Shown piece by piece: positions 1 to 5,276 of a stretch of 5,276 nucleotides of DNA. A program made the position numbers and the translations under genes. Source of the DNA: a virus (lineage: Duplodnaviria; Heunggongvirae; Uroviricota; Caudoviricetes); the IMG/VR virus record IMGVR_UViG_2534681992_000020; one strand, given 5' to 3'. Under the pieces are notes generated by a model, which worked only from the letters and a program-made list of their open reading frames with translations, made no database searches and was not told the origin of the DNA. Each line of letters opens with the position of its first letter. Position 1 is the first letter of the stretch.

Positions 1-47
1 ACCCAGTTCTGAGCCTCAAGACGATCCTGAATGTAATAAGCGTTCAT
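1..47 (-). CDS. N-terminal 15 codons of a leftward gene that runs off the left edge of the window; product unknown
   Basis: Minus-strand ATG at 45-47, preceded by AGGAG (complement of 55-59) with a 7-nt spacer. The frame is open to position 1 and reads [15 protein letters not shown]. It lies in the same orientation as the upstream 68-aa gene, consistent with a leftward early operon. Confidence 0.35.
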
Positions 48-122
48 GGCTGAACTCCTGAAAATGGCTGTGAAAATATCGCCCGCGAAATGCCAGGCTG
101 ATTAGGTAAACAGGAAAGGGGA

Positions 123-329
123 TTAGTGATTCAGGCCGTTGCCGCGTCCGTCGAGAAAAACTTCCACGAGCAAATCACGGGTATAAGTGCGCTCGATGCC
201 GCGATGCAGATAAAGCCGTCCGCGTAAATTAGCTGATGCAGTCCAGGTTCCATCTTTGTGTTTGACCAGCATTCCTGGCATGACCGCACCGCGATTAACG
301 GTCTGCGTTCCGTAATGTTGATGAACCAT
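123..329 (-). CDS. hypothetical small protein (68 aa), early-left operon
   Basis: ATG at 327-329 (minus) with a strong AGGAG (complement of 335-339) 5 nt upstream. The translation has a balanced, protein-like composition, unlike the overlapping alternative-frame ORF 131-364. I do not recognise the family. Confidence 0.5.
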   Translation of the reverse strand: MVHQHYGTQTVNRGAVMPGMLVKHKDGTWTASANLRGRLYLHRGIERTYTRDLLVEVFLDGRGNGLNH

Positions 330-596
330 AAAAACTCCTGCCCGTAAGCTGGGCTGCTGAACAAATAAGGGGTTGCGCAGTATCTGGCGGTGGATGGCCG
401 CCGGTTGTCATAACTAAGTCGCCTCGTTGAAGCAACTGAGGTATGAAGTGTTGAGTTGATTTCAGCTGGTCACACCGACGTTCACGCGTCCGTTTCACCC
501 CTCGCACTCCCCGGAGCCTGCTGAAATTCAAGCTGCGGATCTAAGCGGTCATCGCAACGGTGAATCAGGTGGTTGCCGTATCGTTGTGTTGTTGCG

Positions 597-670
597 ACAT
601 GGTGATAATAGCCATTGCTATTGGTGATATTAATACTTATTGCTATTGTTAGATGTGTTTTGCTATTAAA
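597..670 (-). promoter_or_regulatory. OL-like operator cluster with a putative leftward promoter (pL-like)
   Basis: Three copies of TTGCTATT at 615-622, 640-647 and 660-667. The first lies in a perfect inverted repeat AATAGC-catt-GCTATT (607-622); the second is an imperfect version, AATACT-tatt-GCTATT (632-647). On the minus strand there is a -10 TATTAT (complement of 605-610) and a weak -35 TTAATA (complement of 628-633) with a 17-nt spacer. The same GCTATTAT element forms the -10 of the rightward promoter at 2585-2592. Confidence 0.45.
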
Positions 671-771
671 TGTTTGATGGCAAAAAGAATTAATTTTGTG
701 ACTTGAATCGCATAGCGATAACTGAAGCGAGGTCGTGGTGGTTTTTTGAACGGTTTGTGTGATGAGGGGAG

Positions 772-801
772 GCAAAAGAAAACCCGGCACGGTGGCCGGG
801 T
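772..801 (-). terminator. intrinsic (rho-independent) terminator ending the repressor operon
   Basis: Seven-bp stem ACCCGGC (782-788) paired with GCCGGGT (795-801) around a 6-nt loop. On the minus-strand RNA it is followed by UUUUCUUUUG (complement of 772-781). It begins 5 nt past the stop (806-808) of the 806-1747 gene. The plus-strand side also has a moderately U-rich tail (UAUCUUUAUU), so it may act in both directions. Confidence 0.75.
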
Positions 802-805
802 ATCT

Positions 806-1747
806 TTATTCGAATGGAAGATCTATTTGCCTTTGAGGATTCAACTGTTTTTTTACATGCTCAATTTCGAATATGGTTTTTATGGCATCTCCGATCATAT
901 ATTGAGTTACTTTTAAATCTACAAGTAACATATCACCTTTAGAAAAATTTAAGGTGTTGTTATCAATATCGCTGATGAATTTCTGGTCTTTTATTTCAGC
1001 CAAAAAGCTACTGGCACCATCAGAAAACCGCCACCGGCTTCCTTCATTGAAGGAAATATTTTTAATTTGAAGGGCTTTCTCTACTGTGTACTCTGAAATT
1101 ATTGATTCTGCTGGTAGATTGACTTTGAAATAATGTGCTTCTTGCTTGTTGATCGTCATGAATGTCAAACCATCATCGACAGTAGAGGCAAAGCTGTCAA
1201 TGCCTTCCTGCTCTAATGGCTTACTTATAACTTCTTGTAATGAAGAGCGAAGTTTAATATTTTTATAAAGTTCAATAACGTTACTGTCGTAGATCTCGCT
1301 TTCGTCATCAACAAAGACTTCGATGTTGCTATCAGGCAAATTGTGTAATTTTTTTATTTTCCTTGGACCTATCCATTTTATCAGTTGAATTAGGCCTTTG
1401 CATATTTTTTCTTTAGAACCAGGACAGAGTCCAATAAAAGCAATCAAATTCGCAGCGGCTGTTGCTGAATCGCCGGATAAAAAATCAACAGCCTGTTTGA
1501 ACCAAGATGTAGATGAGGCAACCAGATCTATTCCAAATGAGCCAGCTTTAAATGATGCATTGACTTTTACAGAAACAACAGTCTTGTTTCCGTAGAGAGT
1601 TTTACCGGCTTCCTCTAATGCATCTGATAGTGATAGAAGGGCAGGAGCAAGGTCTCGCACGTTCATTTCATGCGTTTCCAGTGCCGGACCGTCGTATACT
1701 ATCCTGAACTTCATATCATTGGTTTCCGAATTGTTGCCCGCATCCAT
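806..1747 (-). CDS. hypothetical protein (313 aa from ATG 1747; 317 aa if GTG 1759 is used) in the rexAB-equivalent position downstream of the repressor; candidate exclusion/defence gene, function unknown
   Basis: Long uninterrupted minus-strand ORF. The first ATG (1745-1747) follows a GGTGA Shine-Dalgarno-like element by about 9 nt. The gene is visibly AT-rich compared with flanking phage genes. It sits between the repressor stop (1821) and the terminator (782-801), in the same orientation as the repressor and with no terminator in the 1760-1820 spacer. I see no P-loop or other motif I can name. Confidence 0.8.
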   Translation of the reverse strand: MDAGNNSETNDMKFRIVYDGPALETHEMNVRDLAPALLSLSDALEEAGKTLYGNKTVVSVKVNASFKAGSFGIDLVASSTSWFKQAVDFLSGDSATAAANLIAFIGLCPGSKEKICKGLIQLIKWIGPRKIKKLHNLPDSNIEVFVDDESEIYDSNVIELYKNIKLRSSLQEVISKPLEQEGIDSFASTVDDGLTFMTINKQEAHYFKVNLPAESIISEYTVEKALQIKNISFNEGSRWRFSDGASSFLAEIKDQKFISDIDNNTLNFSKGDMLLVDLKVTQYMIGDAIKTIFEIEHVKKQLNPQRQIDLPFE

Positions 1748-1820
1748 TATGGCATTCACCTGATCACATATACAGTTAATTTACGATATTGTCTTAAATC
1801 TTAAAACTTCTATTGTATGG

Positions 1821-2513
1821 CTACCCATGCTTCCTATACGTCTGCGGCATGCTCCCAATAACCTTACCGAAGATGAACACCCGGTTCATCTCGTCTTTCT
1901 CGATCGGGTCCCAAGGTGAGTAGCTCTTGTTATCAGAGATAACCAGCAGCTTATCCTTCATCATTTGCAGACGCTTTACATGGGCTGTGTCGTCGTACAG
2001 AAACGCATAGATACCATCACCGTCGAAAGATTTAACCGTGATATCAACGAACAGCAGATCACCTGGTTCGATCGTTCCTGACATGCTGTCACCACGCACG
2101 TTAATGATGCGGATATTTTCCGCCTTCCTGCCATCGAACATGTGACGAGCATCGTCAAACGAGTACTCAACCGAGCGTAGAACTTCTACAAACTCACGAT
2201 TGATGACACCCGGCCCGGCACTGACTTCTATATCAAGAACGTCAATCTTGAAGTATTTGGAATGGTTGACAGCAGGCTTCCCTGATTGTTGACCGTCATT
2301 TCTCATCGGGCCTATGCCTGATGAGAGCCACTCAGTTCGAACACCCAATGCATTAGCTATTTCAACAATTTTTGTTGAGCCGCGCGCGTTGCCGCTTGTC
2401 AGTCTCCAGATTGTGGGTTGAGCTACGCCAGACGCCTTTGCAAGAGCGCCTTGAGACATTCCAGATTGTTCCATCGCTAGGTTTAAGCAATCAGCAAGAG
2501 TTTCTTTTTTCAT
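1821..2513 (-). CDS. cI: CI-type prophage repressor (N-terminal XRE-family HTH, C-terminal LexA-like S24 autopeptidase)
   Basis: HTH segment SQGALAKASGVAQPTIWRLTSG. Probable Ala-Gly autocleavage site in EVSAGPG. Catalytic serine motif GDSM and lysine motif VKRL, spaced as in LexA and lambda CI. I place the start at ATG 2511-2513 (MKKETL...) because a minus-strand promoter (-35 TTGACC, complement of 2544-2549; -10 TATAAA, complement of 2523-2528) would start transcription at or just before that ATG, giving a leaderless message as for lambda PRM-cI. The ORF track's 2549 start is a TTG with no ribosome-binding site. Confidence 0.9.
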   Translation of the reverse strand: MKKETLADCLNLAMEQSGMSQGALAKASGVAQPTIWRLTSGNARGSTKIVEIANALGVRTEWLSSGIGPMRNDGQQSGKPAVNHSKYFKIDVLDIEVSAGPGVINREFVEVLRSVEYSFDDARHMFDGRKAENIRIINVRGDSMSGTIEPGDLLFVDITVKSFDGDGIYAFLYDDTAHVKRLQMMKDKLLVISDNKSYSPWDPIEKDEMNRVFIFGKVIGSMPQTYRKHG

Positions 2514-2522
2514 AAGTTTTAA

Positions 2523-2607
2523 TTTATACGCTTGCGTATTGATGGTCAAAACACGTTTTGCTATTGATTGGGTTAATACGCATTGCTATTATCTATTCAT
2601 TGCAATA
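2523..2607. promoter_or_regulatory. OR-like operator cluster with divergent promoters (PRM-like leftward, PR-like rightward)
   Basis: Repeats related to the OL sites: ATACGC-tt-GCGTAT palindrome (2526-2539) over the PRM -10; AACACG-tttt-GCTATT (2550-2565) abutting the PRM -35 and overlapping the PR -35; AATACG-catt-GCTATT (2575-2590) overlapping the PR -10; ATTGCAAT palindrome (2599-2606) near the PR +1. PR has -35 TTGATT (2564-2569), a 17-nt spacer and -10 TATTAT (2587-2592). The 2550-2565 site is centred about 43 bp upstream of the predicted PRM start, the position from which lambda CI at OR2 activates PRM. Confidence 0.6.
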
Positions 2608-2623
2608 CCAATAGGAATTGATA

Positions 2624-2851
2624 ATGACAAATCAAACCATTCAACTCGCAATCAGTATTACAGGTAGTCAAAAACGACTGGCAGATCTATGCGGTGTAGC
2701 CCAACCCACTGTTTGGCGTTGGCTACACGGTGGCGGAATTGATGCCCGCTATGTAATGAAAATTGTCTCAGCCACTGGTGGAAAGATTAAACCAGCAGAT
2801 ATTCGTCCCGACCTCGCACCATTGTTTAACGCGAGTAATTCTGCCGCCTAA
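2624..2851 (+). CDS. Cro-like transcriptional regulator of the YdaS family
   Basis: First gene rightward of the PR-like promoter. ATG at 2624 with a GGAA ribosome-binding site (2614-2617); the ORF track's 2618 start is a TTG. The sequence GSQKRLADLCGVAQPTVWRW...ATGGKI...IRPDL matches, from memory, the conserved pattern of YdaS-type Cro proteins (DUF1019). Confidence 0.8.
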   Translation: MTNQTIQLAISITGSQKRLADLCGVAQPTVWRWLHGGGIDARYVMKIVSATGGKIKPADIRPDLAPLFNASNSAA

Positions 2852-2875
2852 ACTGCGGCGTTAACTGATAAGGCA

Positions 2876-3421
2876 ATGACTATGCAATCACTTACATACC
2901 AACAGACTAGCGGATTTAGCCCGACTGCGGTGATAAATCGTTCTCAAACAAAACAGGCGCCAGGCCACGAAAAAATCCGTGATGCCGTTCGCGCCTGGTC
3001 GGCTGCAGATAATCAGGATGTTGTTGCCGCACTCATTGTGAATGAGTATCGGGAGCAGGGCGGCGGCACCATCGATTTCCCTGATGATGTCAGCCGTGCA
3101 CGCCAGAAGCTGTTCCGCTTCCTCGATAACAAATTCGATTCTGAAAAATACCGAAATAACGTGCGTGAACTGACCCCGGCAATTCTGGCGGTACTACCGC
3201 TGGAATATCGCGGCCACCTGGTTGGGCAGGATAGCTTCATGGCTCGGCTGGCTGAAATGGAAAAGGAACTCAGTGAGGCAAAACAGGCTGTCATTCTCAA
3301 CGCACCACGCCACCAGAAACTGAAGGAGATGAGTGAAGGCATTGTGTCGATGTTTCGTGTGGACCCGGATCTGGCTGGTCCACTGATGGCGATGGTCACC
3401 ACCATGCTGGGGGCAATATGA
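2876..3421 (+). CDS. YdaT-family protein (functional analogue of CII in YdaS/YdaT-type immunity regions)
   Basis: Occupies the cII position immediately after cro. The motifs NEYREQGGGTIDFP and LTPAILAVLPLEYRGHL match, from memory, the conserved core of E. coli YdaT-family proteins. Start is ATG 2876 or 2882; the second has better spacing to the AGG at 2872-2873. Its stop overlaps an in-frame ATG of the next reading frame (ATGA at 3418-3421). Confidence 0.7.
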   Translation: MTMQSLTYQQTSGFSPTAVINRSQTKQAPGHEKIRDAVRAWSAADNQDVVAALIVNEYREQGGGTIDFPDDVSRARQKLFRFLDNKFDSEKYRNNVRELTPAILAVLPLEYRGHLVGQDSFMARLAEMEKELSEAKQAVILNAPRHQKLKEMSEGIVSMFRVDPDLAGPLMAMVTTMLGAI

Positions 3422-3507
3422 CAGGTTCAGAAATGGCGAAAGCCGGTCTGCGCGAACAGAACCGACTTTCAGGTGCAAATCGTAACACACTCATTGCGGG
3501 AGGAATT

Positions 3508-4437
3508 ATGGCAAACACTGCTGAGATATTCAATTTTCCAGTGCCGGATGTGGCACAAAAGGAGCCGCGCGTGGCAGATCTCGATGATGGTTATACGCGC
3601 ATTGCAAATGAGTTGCTGGAAGCTGTAATGCTGGCCGGATTAAAACAGCACCAGCTTCTGGTCTTCCTGGCTGTCATGCGCAAAACATATGGCTTTAATA
3701 AAAAACTGGATTGGGTGAGCAACGAGCAACTTTCCGAATTGACCGGGATATTGCCGCACAAGTGTTCTGCTGCAAAAAGCGTTCTGGTAAAGCGTGGGAT
3801 TCTTATTCAGAGCGGGCGGAATATCGGCATCAATAATGTGGTCAGTGAATGGTCAACATTACCCGAATCAGGTAAGAAAAATAAAGTTTACCTGAAAGAG
3901 GTAAATTTACCTGAGTCAGGTAAGAAAAGTTTACCCAAATCAGGTAAAGGCACTTACCCGAATCAGGTAAACACAAAAGACAAACTAACAAAAGACAATA
4001 TAAAACCTTTTTCGTCCGAGAATTCTGACGAATCCTCTGACCAGCCAGAAAATGCCCTTCCTGTGGTGAAACCGGATGCTGCGATTCAGAGCGGCAGCAA
4101 GTGGGGGACAGCAGAAGACCTGACCGCCGCAGAGTGGATGTTTGACATGGTGAAGACCATCGCGCCATCAGCCAGAAAACCGAATTTTGCAGGGTGGGCT
4201 AACGATATTCGCCTGATGCGTGAACGTGACGGACGTAACCACCGCGACATGTGCGTGCTGTTCCGCTGGGCATGCCAGGACAACTTCTGGTCCGGTAACG
4301 TGCTAAGTCCGGCCAAACTCCGCGACAAGTGGACCCAACTCGAAATCAACCGTAACAAGCAACAGGCTGGCGTGACAGCCGGAAAACCAAAACTCGACCT
4401 GACGAACACTGACTGGATTTACGGGGTGGAGCTATGA
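3508..4437 (+). CDS. O: replication initiation protein O (lambda O family) with a divergent iteron-binding N-terminal domain and a lambda-like C-terminal domain
   Basis: ATG 3508 has a GGAGG (3498-3502) 5 nt upstream. The N-terminus MANTAEIFNF...VADLDDGYTRIANELLEA aligns with lambda O (MTNTAKILNF...VADLDDGYARLSNMLLEA, recalled). The C-terminal ~110 aa (SKWGTAEDLTAAEWMFDMVKTIAPSARKPNFAGWANDIRLMRERDGRNHRDMCVLFRW...WIYGVEL) look almost identical to lambda O as I recall it. Iterons lie inside the gene. The ORF track's 3418 start adds 30 residues with no counterpart in lambda O. Confidence 0.9.
   Translation: MANTAEIFNFPVPDVAQKEPRVADLDDGYTRIANELLEAVMLAGLKQHQLLVFLAVMRKTYGFNKKLDWVSNEQLSELTGILPHKCSAAKSVLVKRGILIQSGRNIGINNVVSEWSTLPESGKKNKVYLKEVNLPESGKKSLPKSGKGTYPNQVNTKDKLTKDNIKPFSSENSDESSDQPENALPVVKPDAAIQSGSKWGTAEDLTAAEWMFDMVKTIAPSARKPNFAGWANDIRLMRERDGRNHRDMCVLFRWACQDNFWSGNVLSPAKLRDKWTQLEINRNKQQAGVTAGKPKLDLTNTDWIYGVEL
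3859..3970. repeat. origin of replication: five iterons (TTACC-N7-GGTAA) followed by an A-rich tract (3971-4013)
   Basis: Iterons at 3859-3876 (ttacccgaatcaggtaag), 3888-3904 (ttacctgaaagaggtaa), 3907-3924 (ttacctgagtcaggtaag), 3931-3949 (ttacccaaatcaggtaaag) and 3954-3970 (ttacccgaatcaggtaa). Each has perfect inverted arms TTACC/GGTAA. They are followed by acacaaaagacaaactaacaaaagacaatataaaacc. This matches lambda ori architecture (iterons plus AT-rich region inside O) but the iteron sequence differs from lambda. Confidence 0.8.
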
Positions 4438-5087
4438 AAAACATCGCCGCACAGATGGTTAATTTTGACCGTGAGCAGATGCGCCGGATCGCCAATAACA
4501 TGCCGGAACAGTACGACGAAAAGCCGCAGGTACAGCAGGTAGCGCAGATTATCAATGGTGTGTTCAGCCAGTTACTGGCAACTTTCCCGGCGAGCCTGGC
4601 TAACCGGGACCAGAATGAACTGAACGAAATCCGCCGCCAGTGGGTTCTGGCTTTCCGGGAAAACGGGATCACCACGATGGAACAGGTTAACGCAGGAATG
4701 CGCGTAGCCCGTCGGCAGAATCGACCATTTCTGCCATCACCCGGGCAGTTTGTTGCATGGTGCCGGGAAGAAGCATCCGTTATCGCCGGACTGCCAAACG
4801 TCAGCGAGCTGGTTGATATGGTTTACGAGTATTGCCGGAAGCGAGGCCTGTATCCGGATGCGGAGTCTTATCCGTGGAAATCAAACGCGCACTACTGGCT
4901 GGTTACCAACCTGTATCAGAACATGCGGGCCAATGCGCTTACTGATGCGGAATTACGCCGTAAGGCCGCAGATGAGCTTGTCCATATGACTGCGAGAATT
5001 AACCGTGGTGAGGCGATCCCTGAACCAGTAAAACAACTTCCTGTCATGGGCGGTAGACCTCTAAATCGTGGTAAGCGTACAGCCTGA
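4434..5087 (+). CDS. P: replication protein P (lambda P, DnaB helicase loader), C-terminally truncated and fused to IS-derived codons
   Basis: The start overlaps the O stop (ATGA at 4434-4437), as in lambda. Residues 1 to about 212 (MKNIAAQMVNFDREQMRRIANNMPEQYDEKPQVQQ...PVMGGRPLNR) match lambda P as I recall it. After codon 212 the sequence departs from lambda (expected AQALAKIAEIKAKFGLKGASV) and reads GKRTA-stop, encoded by the inserted element starting at about 5071. Confidence 0.9.
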   Translation: MKNIAAQMVNFDREQMRRIANNMPEQYDEKPQVQQVAQIINGVFSQLLATFPASLANRDQNELNEIRRQWVLAFRENGITTMEQVNAGMRVARRQNRPFLPSPGQFVAWCREEASVIAGLPNVSELVDMVYEYCRKRGLYPDAESYPWKSNAHYWLVTNLYQNMRANALTDAELRRKAADELVHMTARINRGEAIPEPVKQLPVMGGRPLNRGKRTA

Positions 5088-5276
5088 ACCGTCTGGTCAG
5101 AATCTGACGAATTAGACAAAGTGGTGTCCACCAAATAAGTAGTGGGAACCAAAGTGTCAGATATGCAGAAAAATGTGACTCCCGGCAGGCGAAAAGGCTG
5201 CCCTAATTATCCTCCCGAATTTAAACAGCAGCTCGTTGCTGCCTCCTGTGAACCCGGGATATCCATCTCAAAACTT
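5071..5276 (+). mobile_element. left end of an insertion sequence (probably IS66-family-like) inserted into the 3' end of P; continues beyond the window
   Basis: Lambda-like P sequence stops abruptly after ...aaatcgtg (5070). The new sequence begins GTAAGCG (5071-5077), the terminal motif I recall for IS66-family inverted repeats. A transposase-type ORF starts 92 bp inside. The right end and any target-site duplication are outside the window. Confidence 0.55.
5163..5276 (+). CDS. transposase accessory protein OrfA/TnpA (HTH), N-terminal 38 codons; partial at the right edge
   Basis: ATG at 5163; open frame to the end of the window reading MQKNVTPGRRKGCPNYPPEFKQQLVAASCEPGISISKL. The Y-x2-EFK-x2-V...S-x-S pattern is typical of the small HTH first ORF of IS3/IS66-type elements. 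It is absent from the ORF track only because it has no stop inside the window. Confidence 0.6.
   Translation, partial: MQKNVTPGRRKGCPNYPPEFKQQLVAASCEPGISISKL

Follow-up and report, generated by a model that had tools for sequence, protein, structure and literature searches.

The 5,276-nt stretch of DNA analysed here (hereafter the window) represents, with a probability that we put at roughly 0.9, the part of a lambdoid E. coli prophage that governs immunity and replication, a patchwork of interchangeable modules with a lambda-like switch made of non-orthologous parts. A CI-type repressor distant from that of lambda is followed by a YdaS-family protein in the place of Cro, a YdaT-family protein in that of CII, and then by a hybrid replication initiator O and a truncated but otherwise lambda-type helicase loader P (Table 1). 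These family memberships, together with the identity steps, the repeat families and the positions of the junctions, are directly established here. The first-pass annotation described the region as a classic lambdoid module junction; the phrase is accurate, and by the same token the finding is ordinary. The roles of YdaS and YdaT as equivalents of Cro and CII were established before, as were O hybrids of two domains, module swapping of this type is textbook knowledge, and the cassette is already present in sequenced phages, so that nothing here is new and the case has little importance beyond correct annotation. The gains for annotation concern the start of O, which most likely lies at 3508, the disruption of P by an IS66-family element in this copy, and the doubtful label of the gene in the rexAB slot.

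Table 1. Position, strand and main characters of the features recognised in the window.
Feature	Position	Strand	Remarks
PL-like promoter	633->605	-	promoter-like hexamers in scan
OL-like operator cluster	607-667	.	three 16-bp sites, 607-622, 632-647 and 652-667; putative operator function
Terminator-like hairpin	782-801	.	GC-rich, T-runs on both strands; end of the cI-cargo operon, left edge of the cargo slot
Cargo gene	806-1759	-	low GC; LAPAL-motif protein at the rexAB position; PADLOC candidate defence family PDC-S42
CI-type repressor	1821-2513	-	230 aa; N-terminal HTH and C-terminal S24 self-cleaving domain; start per RefSeq annotation
PRM-like promoter	2549->2521	-	a near-leaderless cI mRNA would result
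OR-like operator cluster	2525-2592	.	three 16-bp sites, 2525-2540, 2550-2565 and 2575-2590; putative function, by analogy with lambda OR
PR-like promoter	TTGATT 2564-2569 / TATTAT 2587-2592	+	promoter scan
Candidate YdaT box	2618-2635	.	TTGATAATGACAAATCAA; straddles the start codon of the cro-like gene; weak lead only
Cro-equivalent, YdaS family	2624-2851	+	75 aa; all-helical HTH; PF15943
CII-equivalent, YdaT family	2882-3421	+	179 aa; PF06254
ydaT-O spacer	3425-3533	-	leftward hairpin at about 3437-3470; promoter-like site 3533->3505 overlapping the O start
Replication initiator O, hybrid	3508-4437	+	309 aa; PF04492; conserved lambda-type start
Five palindromic iterons	3859-3970	.	type TTACCNGAANNAGGTAA (TTACC...GGTAA); starts at 3859, 3888, 3907, 3931 and 3954
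A-rich ori segment	3971-4002	.	ACACAAAAGACAAACTAACAAAAGACAATATA; 32 nt, directly after the last iteron; about O residues 155-165
Lambda-type helicase loader P	4434-5070	+	residues 1-212 of 233; PF06992
IS66-family left end	5071-5276	+	begins GTAAGCG; includes the start of the tnpA accessory gene

Gene layout and condition of this copy

The open reading frames lie where the first-pass annotation had placed them, and the RefSeq annotation of a prophage of E. coli 2013C-3264, 100% identical to the window over 1-5070, concurs. At the right-hand end, P matches PF06992 with 209 bits and is 97% identical to lambda P, which makes it a member of the family by descent in a truncated copy cut after residue 212 of 233; its reading frame runs past 5070 into foreign DNA and meets a stop at 5087. 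IS66-like tnpA regions of about 3,400 E. coli genomes match the foreign segment at 100%, and the few IS copies that align already from 5058-5063 are attributed to chance extension into flanking DNA. A contiguous P/IS66 junction was found in none of 5,426 complete E. coli genomes, and the 2013C-3264 prophage encodes an intact P of 233 aa. Because P is truncated by the IS66-family end, autonomous replication of this copy is probably impaired, with the immunity genes and the cargo gene remaining.

The same interruption at 5070 suggests another reading, in which the window is what is left of a prophage in decay, its switch and replication genes having ceased to cooperate, and only the repressor and the cargo gene are kept under host selection; pseudogene fragments near the corresponding region of the 2013C-3264 prophage point the same way. 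However, every open reading frame other than P is intact, viable phage isolates (1W, 3W, 4A7, Perceval and the PhiR series) carry the cassette at 96-98% identity, and the 100%-identical prophage just mentioned has kept its P. We regard such decay as possible, if rather doubtful. It concerns the state of this copy and not the identity of the modules, and is thus compatible with the main explanation, a mosaic lambdoid immunity and replication region.

An observation separate from the claims of the first-pass annotation is that a PDC-S42 cargo gene lies within the immunity region, with a GC content of 0.35-0.39 and matches to NCBIfam NF053583 (270 bits) and to the PADLOC model PDLC05015 for PDC-S42 (E 3.4e-86). 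The label “phage structural protein” given to this gene in the rexAB slot looks wrong in view of its match to PDC-S42, a candidate defence family. In PhiR47_2 the slot (807-1820) is occupied by GevA/GevT, and in phage 1W by genes different from that of the window. At its left edge, positions 769-811 have 82-88% identity to the lambda sequence surrounding the 3′ end of rexB, and the similarity to relatives breaks at 806. Comparison with relatives places further junctions at 806/1821, at 2377 inside cI, at about 2860-2881 and at 3499.

The hybrid initiator O and its internal junction

O contains the Phage_rep_O N-terminal domain (PF04492, 117 bits; TIGR01610, 82.7 bits) and, inside its gene, iterons followed by an A-rich segment, an arrangement that corresponds to the origin architecture of iterons and then an AT-rich tract inside O (PMC7466680, PMC3349717). 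Its start is most likely at 3508 and not at the RefSeq-annotated 3418; the sequence AGGAG-N-ATTATG found there is conserved in lambda and in Klebsiella phage ST11-VIM1phi8.2 (MK448234, hereafter the Klebsiella phage), and phrog_277 aligns from residue 31 of the long reading frame that begins at 3418.

Overall identity to lambda O is 66%, distributed very unevenly along the protein. Over residues 1-165, identity is 42% to lambda O (47% for the first 117 residues) and 79% to O of the Klebsiella phage, whereas over residues 166-309 it is 95% to lambda O (137/144) and 14% to that of the Klebsiella phage. A sliding profile of nucleotide identity to lambda gives the same picture, with 45-65% over 3499-3970 and 93-100% over 4030-5070. 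The iterons go with the N-terminal part: five copies were found against 0.01 expected by chance, four copies of the same type are present in the Klebsiella phage and none in lambda, and the window is devoid of the lambda-type TCCCT...AGGGA. With an N-terminal domain this far from lambda and iterons of another sequence, the origin recognition specific to lambda is not retained, and O is a lambda O homologue with a predicted different ori specificity. In the first-pass annotation, P and the C-terminal domain of O had been described as apparently of lambda type and the O N-terminal domain with its iterons as divergent, and one recombination boundary had been placed inside O, between its origin-binding and P-interacting parts. 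All three proposals agree with our results, and the boundary can now be mapped to 3971-4002.

In a three-way alignment, the A-rich segment directly downstream of the last iteron is common to the window, lambda and the Klebsiella phage. By megablast, lambda and about 200 further phage records match the window from 3971 onward, and the Klebsiella phage matches it as far as 4000. On passing this segment, third-codon identity to lambda rises abruptly, from 0.44 for the O N-domain to 0.89 for the O C-domain and 0.96 for P, a jump that demonstrates recombination; on the sequence evidence, the identity step in O is a recombination event within the conserved A-rich part of the origin. Independent support for the junction comes from the Klebsiella phage, which has the same N-domain and iterons and the same join point, followed by an unrelated C-terminus.

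The step could also be imagined to reflect unequal rates without any recombination, the DNA-binding N-domain and the iterons co-evolving fast as selection favours new origin specificities, and the P-binding C-domain being constrained. The N-domain is indeed still recognisably homologous to lambda O at the 47% given above, and identity to lambda rises in a somewhat graded manner across 3970-4060 (0.78, 0.87, 0.93). However, the silent sites step likewise, the Klebsiella phage has the left half at 79-80% joined to an unrelated right half and another loader, and the roughly 200 phage records share only the segment starting at 3971. Rate differences are therefore already contradicted by the present data, and we consider them very improbable as the cause of the step.

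The O N-terminal domain (residues 1 to about 155) travels together with the five iterons that it would read, and the C-terminal domain (from about residue 166) would recruit P, which in turn would load the host DnaB. This division of labour is proposed from homology and published work, and the interaction of the C-terminal domain with P in particular from its identity to lambda. O offers a clean natural case of two-domain organisation, with the exchange point in the conserved A-rich part of the origin.

The lysis-lysogeny switch

The repressor matches both HTH_3 (28 bits) and Peptidase_S24 (67 bits) of Pfam, as well as the CI-like phrog_4 and phrog_6201 of PHROGs. Its translation holds an Ala99-Gly100 cleavage site, a GDSM motif (Ser) at residue 141 and a VKRL motif (Lys) at about residue 180, so that the HTH, the S24 domain, the Ala-Gly site and the Ser/Lys dyad of the CI/LexA-type class are all present. 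Identity to lambda CI is 24% (E 0.03), and the repressor, a member of this HTH and S24 class, is thus not the lambda version, as had been claimed. On both sides of the repressor and cargo genes lie putative operators. The half-site TTGCTATT occurs five times in the window, always at the OL-like and OR-like clusters, against 0.26 copies expected (0 of 200 shuffles reached five), and a 49-nt direct similarity connects 599-647 with 2542-2590. In the promoter scan, promoter-like sites point outward from both clusters. Going by homology and published work, the SOS-cleavable CI-type repressor would bind the three OR and three OL sites of 16 bp, shutting PR and PL, and PR would drive the cro-like gene, ydaT, O and P.

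The rightward operon opens with a gene divergent from cI; 110 nt separate the two starts, that of cI being at 2513 (-), and the operators lie in this interval. The 75-aa product of this gene covers 60 of the 65 model positions of PF15943 with 54.5 bits (gathering cutoff 30, E 1e-14), matches phrog_35 and is 32% identical to YdaS of Rac (E 6e-10), and is consequently a YdaS member and not the lambda version, as the first-pass annotation had suspected. The nearest solved structures are the Cro proteins 3BD1 and 5W8Y, and comparison with lambda Cro itself gave no meaningful similarity (E 0.004 over 46 aa). The HTH segment of the window protein, GVAQPTVWRW, closely resembles GVAQPTIWRL of cI, and the HTH segments of the two genes have 79% complementary sequence in common. 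The YdaS-family protein would act as Cro and, with a recognition helix that is nearly CI's own, would compete with CI for the same operators. For YdaS of CP-933P, binding to the repressor operators and repression of PRM have been demonstrated (PMC8630535).

The protein at the cII position likewise proved to be a YdaT member and not the lambda version, in agreement with the first-pass annotation, whose start at 2876 is an alternative in-frame ATG two codons upstream of 2882 that would give 181 aa. The 179-aa product covers 90 of 92 model positions of PF06254 (104.8 bits, cutoff 21, E 3.4e-30), matches the CII-like activator family phrog_163 (E 1.3e-66), is 35% identical to YdaT of Rac (E 2e-12) and has a weak match to the CP-933P YdaT structure 8BT1 in PDB (phmmer E 3e-4); pairwise comparison with lambda CII yielded no alignment. 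In the recognition-helix alignment, HRW of Rac and FRW of CP-933P correspond to FRF here, the Arg, which contacts DNA in YdaT of Rac, being kept and Trp replaced by Phe. This Arg-Trp pair (R57/W58) is needed for DNA binding and fold in Rac YdaT (PMC11879457). The roles of YdaS and YdaT were argued from genetic context, with a history back to Casjens 2003 (PMC5917428), and the two proteins are now regarded as Cro and CII analogues, YdaT activating a PRE-like promoter in CP-933P (PMC8630535). The structure of YdaT has been solved and its box given as TTGATT-N6-AATCAA (PMC9986795; box also in PMC11879457), and YdaT of Rac activates racR from a reverse promoter within ydaS (PMC11879457). By homology with these systems, the YdaT-family protein here would work as the CII equivalent, forming an HTH tetramer and activating leftward transcription of the repressor gene from an establishment promoter. 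A promoter scan and inspection of the window gave no convincing candidate for such a PRE-like promoter.

The Pfam names “Bacterial toxin YdaS” and “Bacterial toxin ydaT”, the RefSeq product “toxin YdaT domain-containing protein” and the toxicity of ectopic Rac YdaS and YdaT (summarised in PMC5917428 and PMC11879457) would suit a toxin-antitoxin pair serving in addiction or abortive infection, a reading that is extremely improbable, since the genes occupy precisely the places of cro and cII, flanked by a divergent repressor of CI type and by O, both proteins are HTH DNA-binding proteins, PADLOC found no defence toxin (only a marginal HTH match of YdaS to mad1), and the experiments on CP-933P and Rac describe transcription factors and no toxin-antitoxin pair (PMC8630535, PMC9986795, PMC11879457). 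A type II toxin-antitoxin identity is likewise rejected by genetic context and published experiments (PMC5917428, PMC8630535). The toxin labels are misleading here, the genes being the Cro and CII equivalents of a lambdoid switch.

Around this switch, several regulatory elements were searched for. No N homologue was found. In a search of the unannotated gap 330-805, no PHROG family matched the 78-aa reading frame at 295-531 (-), which has an Arg-rich N-terminus, or the 102-aa reading frame at 482-790. The interval between cro and ydaT is too short to hold nutR, and the 271-nt PL leader folds no better than its shuffles (z = -1.0). An Rfam scan of the whole window at E<=1 returned only a chance miRNA match and no nut, put or oop family. 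Early antitermination, if any, is different from that of lambda. Conserved hairpins upstream of kil (386-447, minus strand) were considered as relatives of the Rac sRNA KilS and rejected, as neither a convincing alignment nor literature support was found.

The spacer between ydaT and O occupies the position of lambda pO, oop and tO, and its hairpin (fold z = -2.5) aligns with the oop terminator region of lambda; the outer arms are conserved, and the inner stem differs in the Klebsiella phage. We note this oop-like hairpin as part of a candidate transcript (3425-3498, minus strand) predicted from the sequence.

The candidate YdaT box has one mismatch to TTGATT-N6-AATCAA and is the sole match in the window at <=1 mismatch, marginally above chance (0.04 expected; 8 of 200 shuffles reach one match). 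The corresponding site has two mismatches in phage 1W, only a half-site in PhiR47_2, and is absent from the Klebsiella phage, which itself has no ydaT. PhiR47_2 shares the same ydaT with a different cro, and upstream of the shared block no inverted repeats are common to it and the window, the shared elements being just words of 8-9 nt whose significance is doubtful and two of which occur in each of the cro genes. It is conceivable, and we think it unlikely, that YdaT binds the box at the cro-like start, just downstream of PR, and thereby directly brakes the entire PR operon, ydaT itself and O/P included, besides or instead of activating a PRE-like promoter. If this were true, then, given that N and nutR seem to be missing and that the oop-like hairpin lies clear of ydaT, the lysis-lysogeny decision would be wired unlike that of lambda under the same gene order.

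Comparison with known systems

Besides the 2013C-3264 prophage, the closest relatives are a group of isolated phages, 1W (classified in the genus Bievrevirus), 3W, 4A7, Lambda_4C10 and Perceval, which carry the cassette at about 97% identity with the same order of cI, cro (YdaS), cII (YdaT), hybrid O and P (97-98% over 1821-5070); the cassette is also carried by 34 complete E. coli genomes. These phages and the 2013C-3264 prophage have five iterons as in the window. Phage 1W differs in the cargo of the rexAB slot, and in both 1W and the 2013C-3264 prophage P is intact, whereas that of the window is interrupted by the IS66-family end.

Rac (racR-ydaS-ydaT) and CP-933P (paaR2-ydaS-ydaT) resemble the window in having YdaS and YdaT downstream of a divergent repressor and upstream of the replication genes (PMC8630535, PMC11879457). 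However, the window proteins are only 32-35% identical to YdaS and YdaT of Rac, nucleotide comparison of Rac with the window revealed no DNA similarity, so that the kinship is at the protein level only, and the replication module is YdaU/YdaV in Rac and O/P here. The repressor is a full CI with HTH and S24 domains, unlike RacR or PaaR2, the latter being without a peptidase motif (PMC8630535).

Lambda shares with the window the gene order and its logic, the divergent PRM and PR with three operators, a further set of operators at PL, and an origin inside O built of iterons and an AT-rich tract, besides the nearly identical O C-domain (95%) and P (97%). On the other hand, CI stands at 24%, Cro and CII are replaced by YdaS- and YdaT-family proteins, the O N-domain stands at 42%, lambda has four iterons where the window has five of different sequence, and N, nutR and rexAB of lambda were not found in the window.

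The Klebsiella phage has related cI and cro genes (75% nucleotide identity), the same type of O N-domain (79% at the amino acid level), iterons of the same type and, behind the last of them, the A-rich segment. It differs in having a short classical “CII family protein” in place of YdaT, and an unrelated O C-domain (14%) followed by an AAA ATPase that replaces P. One origin-recognition half is thus naturally paired with either a P-type or an AAA+-type helicase loader.

Gene content, relatives and the interrupted P gene

The immunity and replication cassette of this lambdoid prophage is laid out in the table below. A prophage in E. coli 2013C-3264 shows 100% identity to positions 1-5070, and the isolated phages 1W, 3W, 4A7, Lambda_4C10, Perceval and several PhiR phages are 96-98% identical across most of the window; in sequenced, isolated phages the cassette genes already carry the labels cI, cro, cII, O and P.

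Features of the window (gene coordinates from the ORF list and RefSeq annotation; block boundaries from comparison with relatives)
Feature	Position	Strand	Remark
kil	123-329	-
Unannotated gap	330-805		putative leftward operators and promoter
Two-hairpin element	386-447	-	unannotated
OL-like cluster	607-667		putative operator
Low-GC cargo gene	806-1759	-
Block boundaries	806 and 1821		edges of the cargo slot at the rexAB position
CI-type repressor	1821-2513	-
Block boundary	2377		inside cI
OR-like cluster	2525-2590		putative operator
Candidate YdaT box	2618-2635		over the cro-like start codon
cro-like gene	2624-2851	+
Block boundary	about 2860-2881		between cro and ydaT
ydaT-like gene	2882-3421	+
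oop-like element	3425-3533	-	promoter-like site overlaps O start
Block boundary	3499		just upstream of conserved O start
Iterons	3859-3970		five
A-rich segment	3971-4002		directly after last iteron
O	to 4437	+
P	from 4434	+
IS66-family left end	5071-5276		begins GTAAGCG

The IS66-family end, in which the tnpA accessory gene begins, cuts P off after residue 212 of 233, whereas P is intact in the otherwise identical 2013C-3264 prophage. The contiguous P/IS66 junction is missing from all 5,426 complete E. coli genomes searched, and it is therefore either strain-specific or an assembly join. That this copy of the module is decaying is partly true, since P is disrupted here, but this leaves the identity of the module unaltered.

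The hybrid O gene and its junction

The first-pass annotation described a mosaic module in which YdaS/YdaT-type Cro and CII analogues and a non-lambda CI are joined to a lambda-type O C-terminal domain and P; this description is correct, and all its factual statements stand. Identity to lambda in a sliding profile is 45-65% over 3499-3970 and 93-100% over 4030-5070, and in megablast lambda and about 200 other phage records match from 3971 onward. At the protein level, residues 1-165 of O (the N-domain) are 42% identical to lambda O, residues 166-309 (the C-domain) 95%, and P is 97% identical to its lambda counterpart. Rate heterogeneity without recombination, as an explanation of this step, is not supported: at third codon positions the identities are 0.44, 0.89 and 0.96 for the O N-domain, O C-domain and P, so that the step is present at silent sites and reflects different ancestry, not merely faster protein evolution.

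The iterons are divergent as well, being five palindromic copies of the type TTACCNGAANNAGGTAA (0.01 expected by chance), and lambda-type TCCCT...AGGGA iterons are absent from the window. Klebsiella phage ST11-VIM1phi8.2 lends independent support: it has DNA in common with the window up to position 4000, including an O N-domain of 79% amino acid identity and four iterons of the same type, but the C-terminus of its O is unrelated (14% identity), with an AAA ATPase downstream where P would be. A three-way alignment shows the window to track the Klebsiella phage on its left side and lambda on its right, and all three have in common the A-rich segment ACACAAAAGACA...ACAAAAGA, which corresponds to the AT-rich part of the origin by published architecture (PMC7466680; PMC3349717). 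This segment is the crossover zone, placing the recombination boundary inside O at about residues 155-165.

RefSeq starts O at 3418, giving a 339-aa product whose gene overlaps the ydaT stop. Homology to the O proteins of lambda and the Klebsiella phage begins at 3508 (309 aa), where the AGGAG-N-ATTATG context, with its SD and ATG, and the first codons are conserved in both. On the long ORF, alignment to the PHROG O model begins only at residue 31; judged by these observations, the true start is most likely 3508 and not 3418.

Regulatory proteins, putative operators and hairpin elements

The Cro-position protein (75 aa) belongs to YdaS (Pfam PF15943, 54.5 bits against a cutoff of 30) and the CII-position protein (179 aa) to YdaT (PF06254, 104.8 bits against 21); their PHROGs families are 'transcriptional repressor' and 'CII-like transcriptional activator'. 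Direct comparison with Rac YdaS and YdaT of E. coli K-12 gave 32% (E 6e-10) and 35% identity (E 2e-12), the former protein also matches solved Cro proteins and the latter the CP-933P YdaT crystal structure 8BT1, and neither resembles lambda Cro or CII in pairwise comparison. In CP-933P, YdaS has the role of Cro and a PRE-like promoter is switched on by YdaT (PMC8630535); in Rac, YdaT turns on racR through a reverse promoter that lies within ydaS (PMC11879457). The assignment of the two as Cro/CII equivalents dates to Casjens 2003 (per PMC5917428); reading them as a toxin-antitoxin pair is not supported. The repressor, with HTH and S24 domains, an Ala-Gly site and GDSM and VKRL motifs, shares just 24% identity with lambda CI. 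Its HTH segment GVAQPTIWRL is nearly that of the Cro-like protein, GVAQPTVWRW, consistent with the two competing for a single set of operators. A 24-nt inverted repeat (2406-2429 and 2693-2716, 79% complementary) exists because cI and the cro-like gene encode this segment, GVAQPT(I/V)WR, on opposite strands.

There are five copies of the half-site TTGCTATT in the window (0.26 expected; 0/200 shuffles reach five), confined to the OR-like and OL-like clusters, and once the left halves are added each cluster comprises three 16-bp sites. Promoter-like hexamers point rightward from the OR-like cluster (PR-like) and leftward from both (PRM-like and PL-like), and the clusters are putative operators. 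A perfect palindrome, CAAAACACGTTTTG, lies between OR sites (2547-2560), and another, ACTCATTGTGAATGAGT, within ydaT (3031-3047). YdaT is a tetrameric HTH protein binding TTGATT-N6-AATCAA (PMC9986795), and the sole good match, TTGATAATGACAAATCAA, has one mismatch (0.04 hits expected; 8/200 shuffles reach one hit). Phage 1W mismatches the published sequence at two positions here, PhiR47_2 keeps only a half-site, and the Klebsiella phage, which is without ydaT, lacks the box; this candidate is a weak lead. No convincing PRE-like promoter was found in the window.

The two-hairpin element, about 57 nt upstream of kil, is unusually stable (z = -3.96; 0/200 shuffles equally stable). It recurs over 62 nt at 93.5% identity just upstream of kil in the otherwise unrelated phage HK225, where two stem substitutions keep pairing, and at 88% identity in Enterobacter phages; no Rfam family matches it, and no similarity to Rac KilS could be detected. 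The oop-like arrangement has a leftward promoter-like site (TTGAAT-17-CATAAT, with TG) over the O start and a hairpin at about 3437-3470 (z = -2.5) that aligns with the lambda oop terminator region and keeps its outer arms, with a different inner stem, in the Klebsiella phage; in contrast to lambda oop, it would have next to no overlap with the gene upstream. No homologue of N was found in the gap, and the cro-ydaT spacer (2852-2881, 24-30 nt) has no room for nutR or tR1. The longer spacer of PhiR47_2 holds a boxA-like CGCTCTTTAACAA.

Further module boundaries and known systems

Several block boundaries make the region mosaic at multiple points, as expected for lambdoid phages. PhiR47_2 has the cI C-terminal domain in common (1821-2377, 89.6% identity), but not the HTH, operators or cro, and this junction is an immunity-specificity swap within the repressor gene. 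At the cro/ydaT boundary the Klebsiella phage carries a short classical CII in place of YdaT, and PhiR47_2 has the same ydaT preceded by a different cro. In PhiR47_2 the cargo slot (807-1820) is occupied by GevA/GevT, and in phage 1W by other genes. Here the gene in the slot (GC 0.35-0.39) matches the PADLOC candidate defence family PDC-S42 (E 3.4e-86); given that it is co-transcribed with cI, the name that NCBIfam gives this family, 'LAPAL motif-containing putative phage structural protein', seems questionable. Positions 769-811, with a terminator-like hairpin, are 82-88% identical to lambda DNA around the rexB 3' end and may mark a conserved edge of the slot.

From homology and published experiments, the module is most likely a lambda-type switch made of non-orthologous parts. 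The O N-domain would read the iterons inherited together with it, and the lambda-type C-domain would recruit P, which would load DnaB. Classical work on lambda hybrid phages established that the N-domain reads iterons and the C-domain recruits P, and the natural pairing found here is consistent with that division of labour. The module is a known one: the cassette is present in sequenced phages, YdaS and YdaT have published roles, and hybrid O genes are a classical finding.
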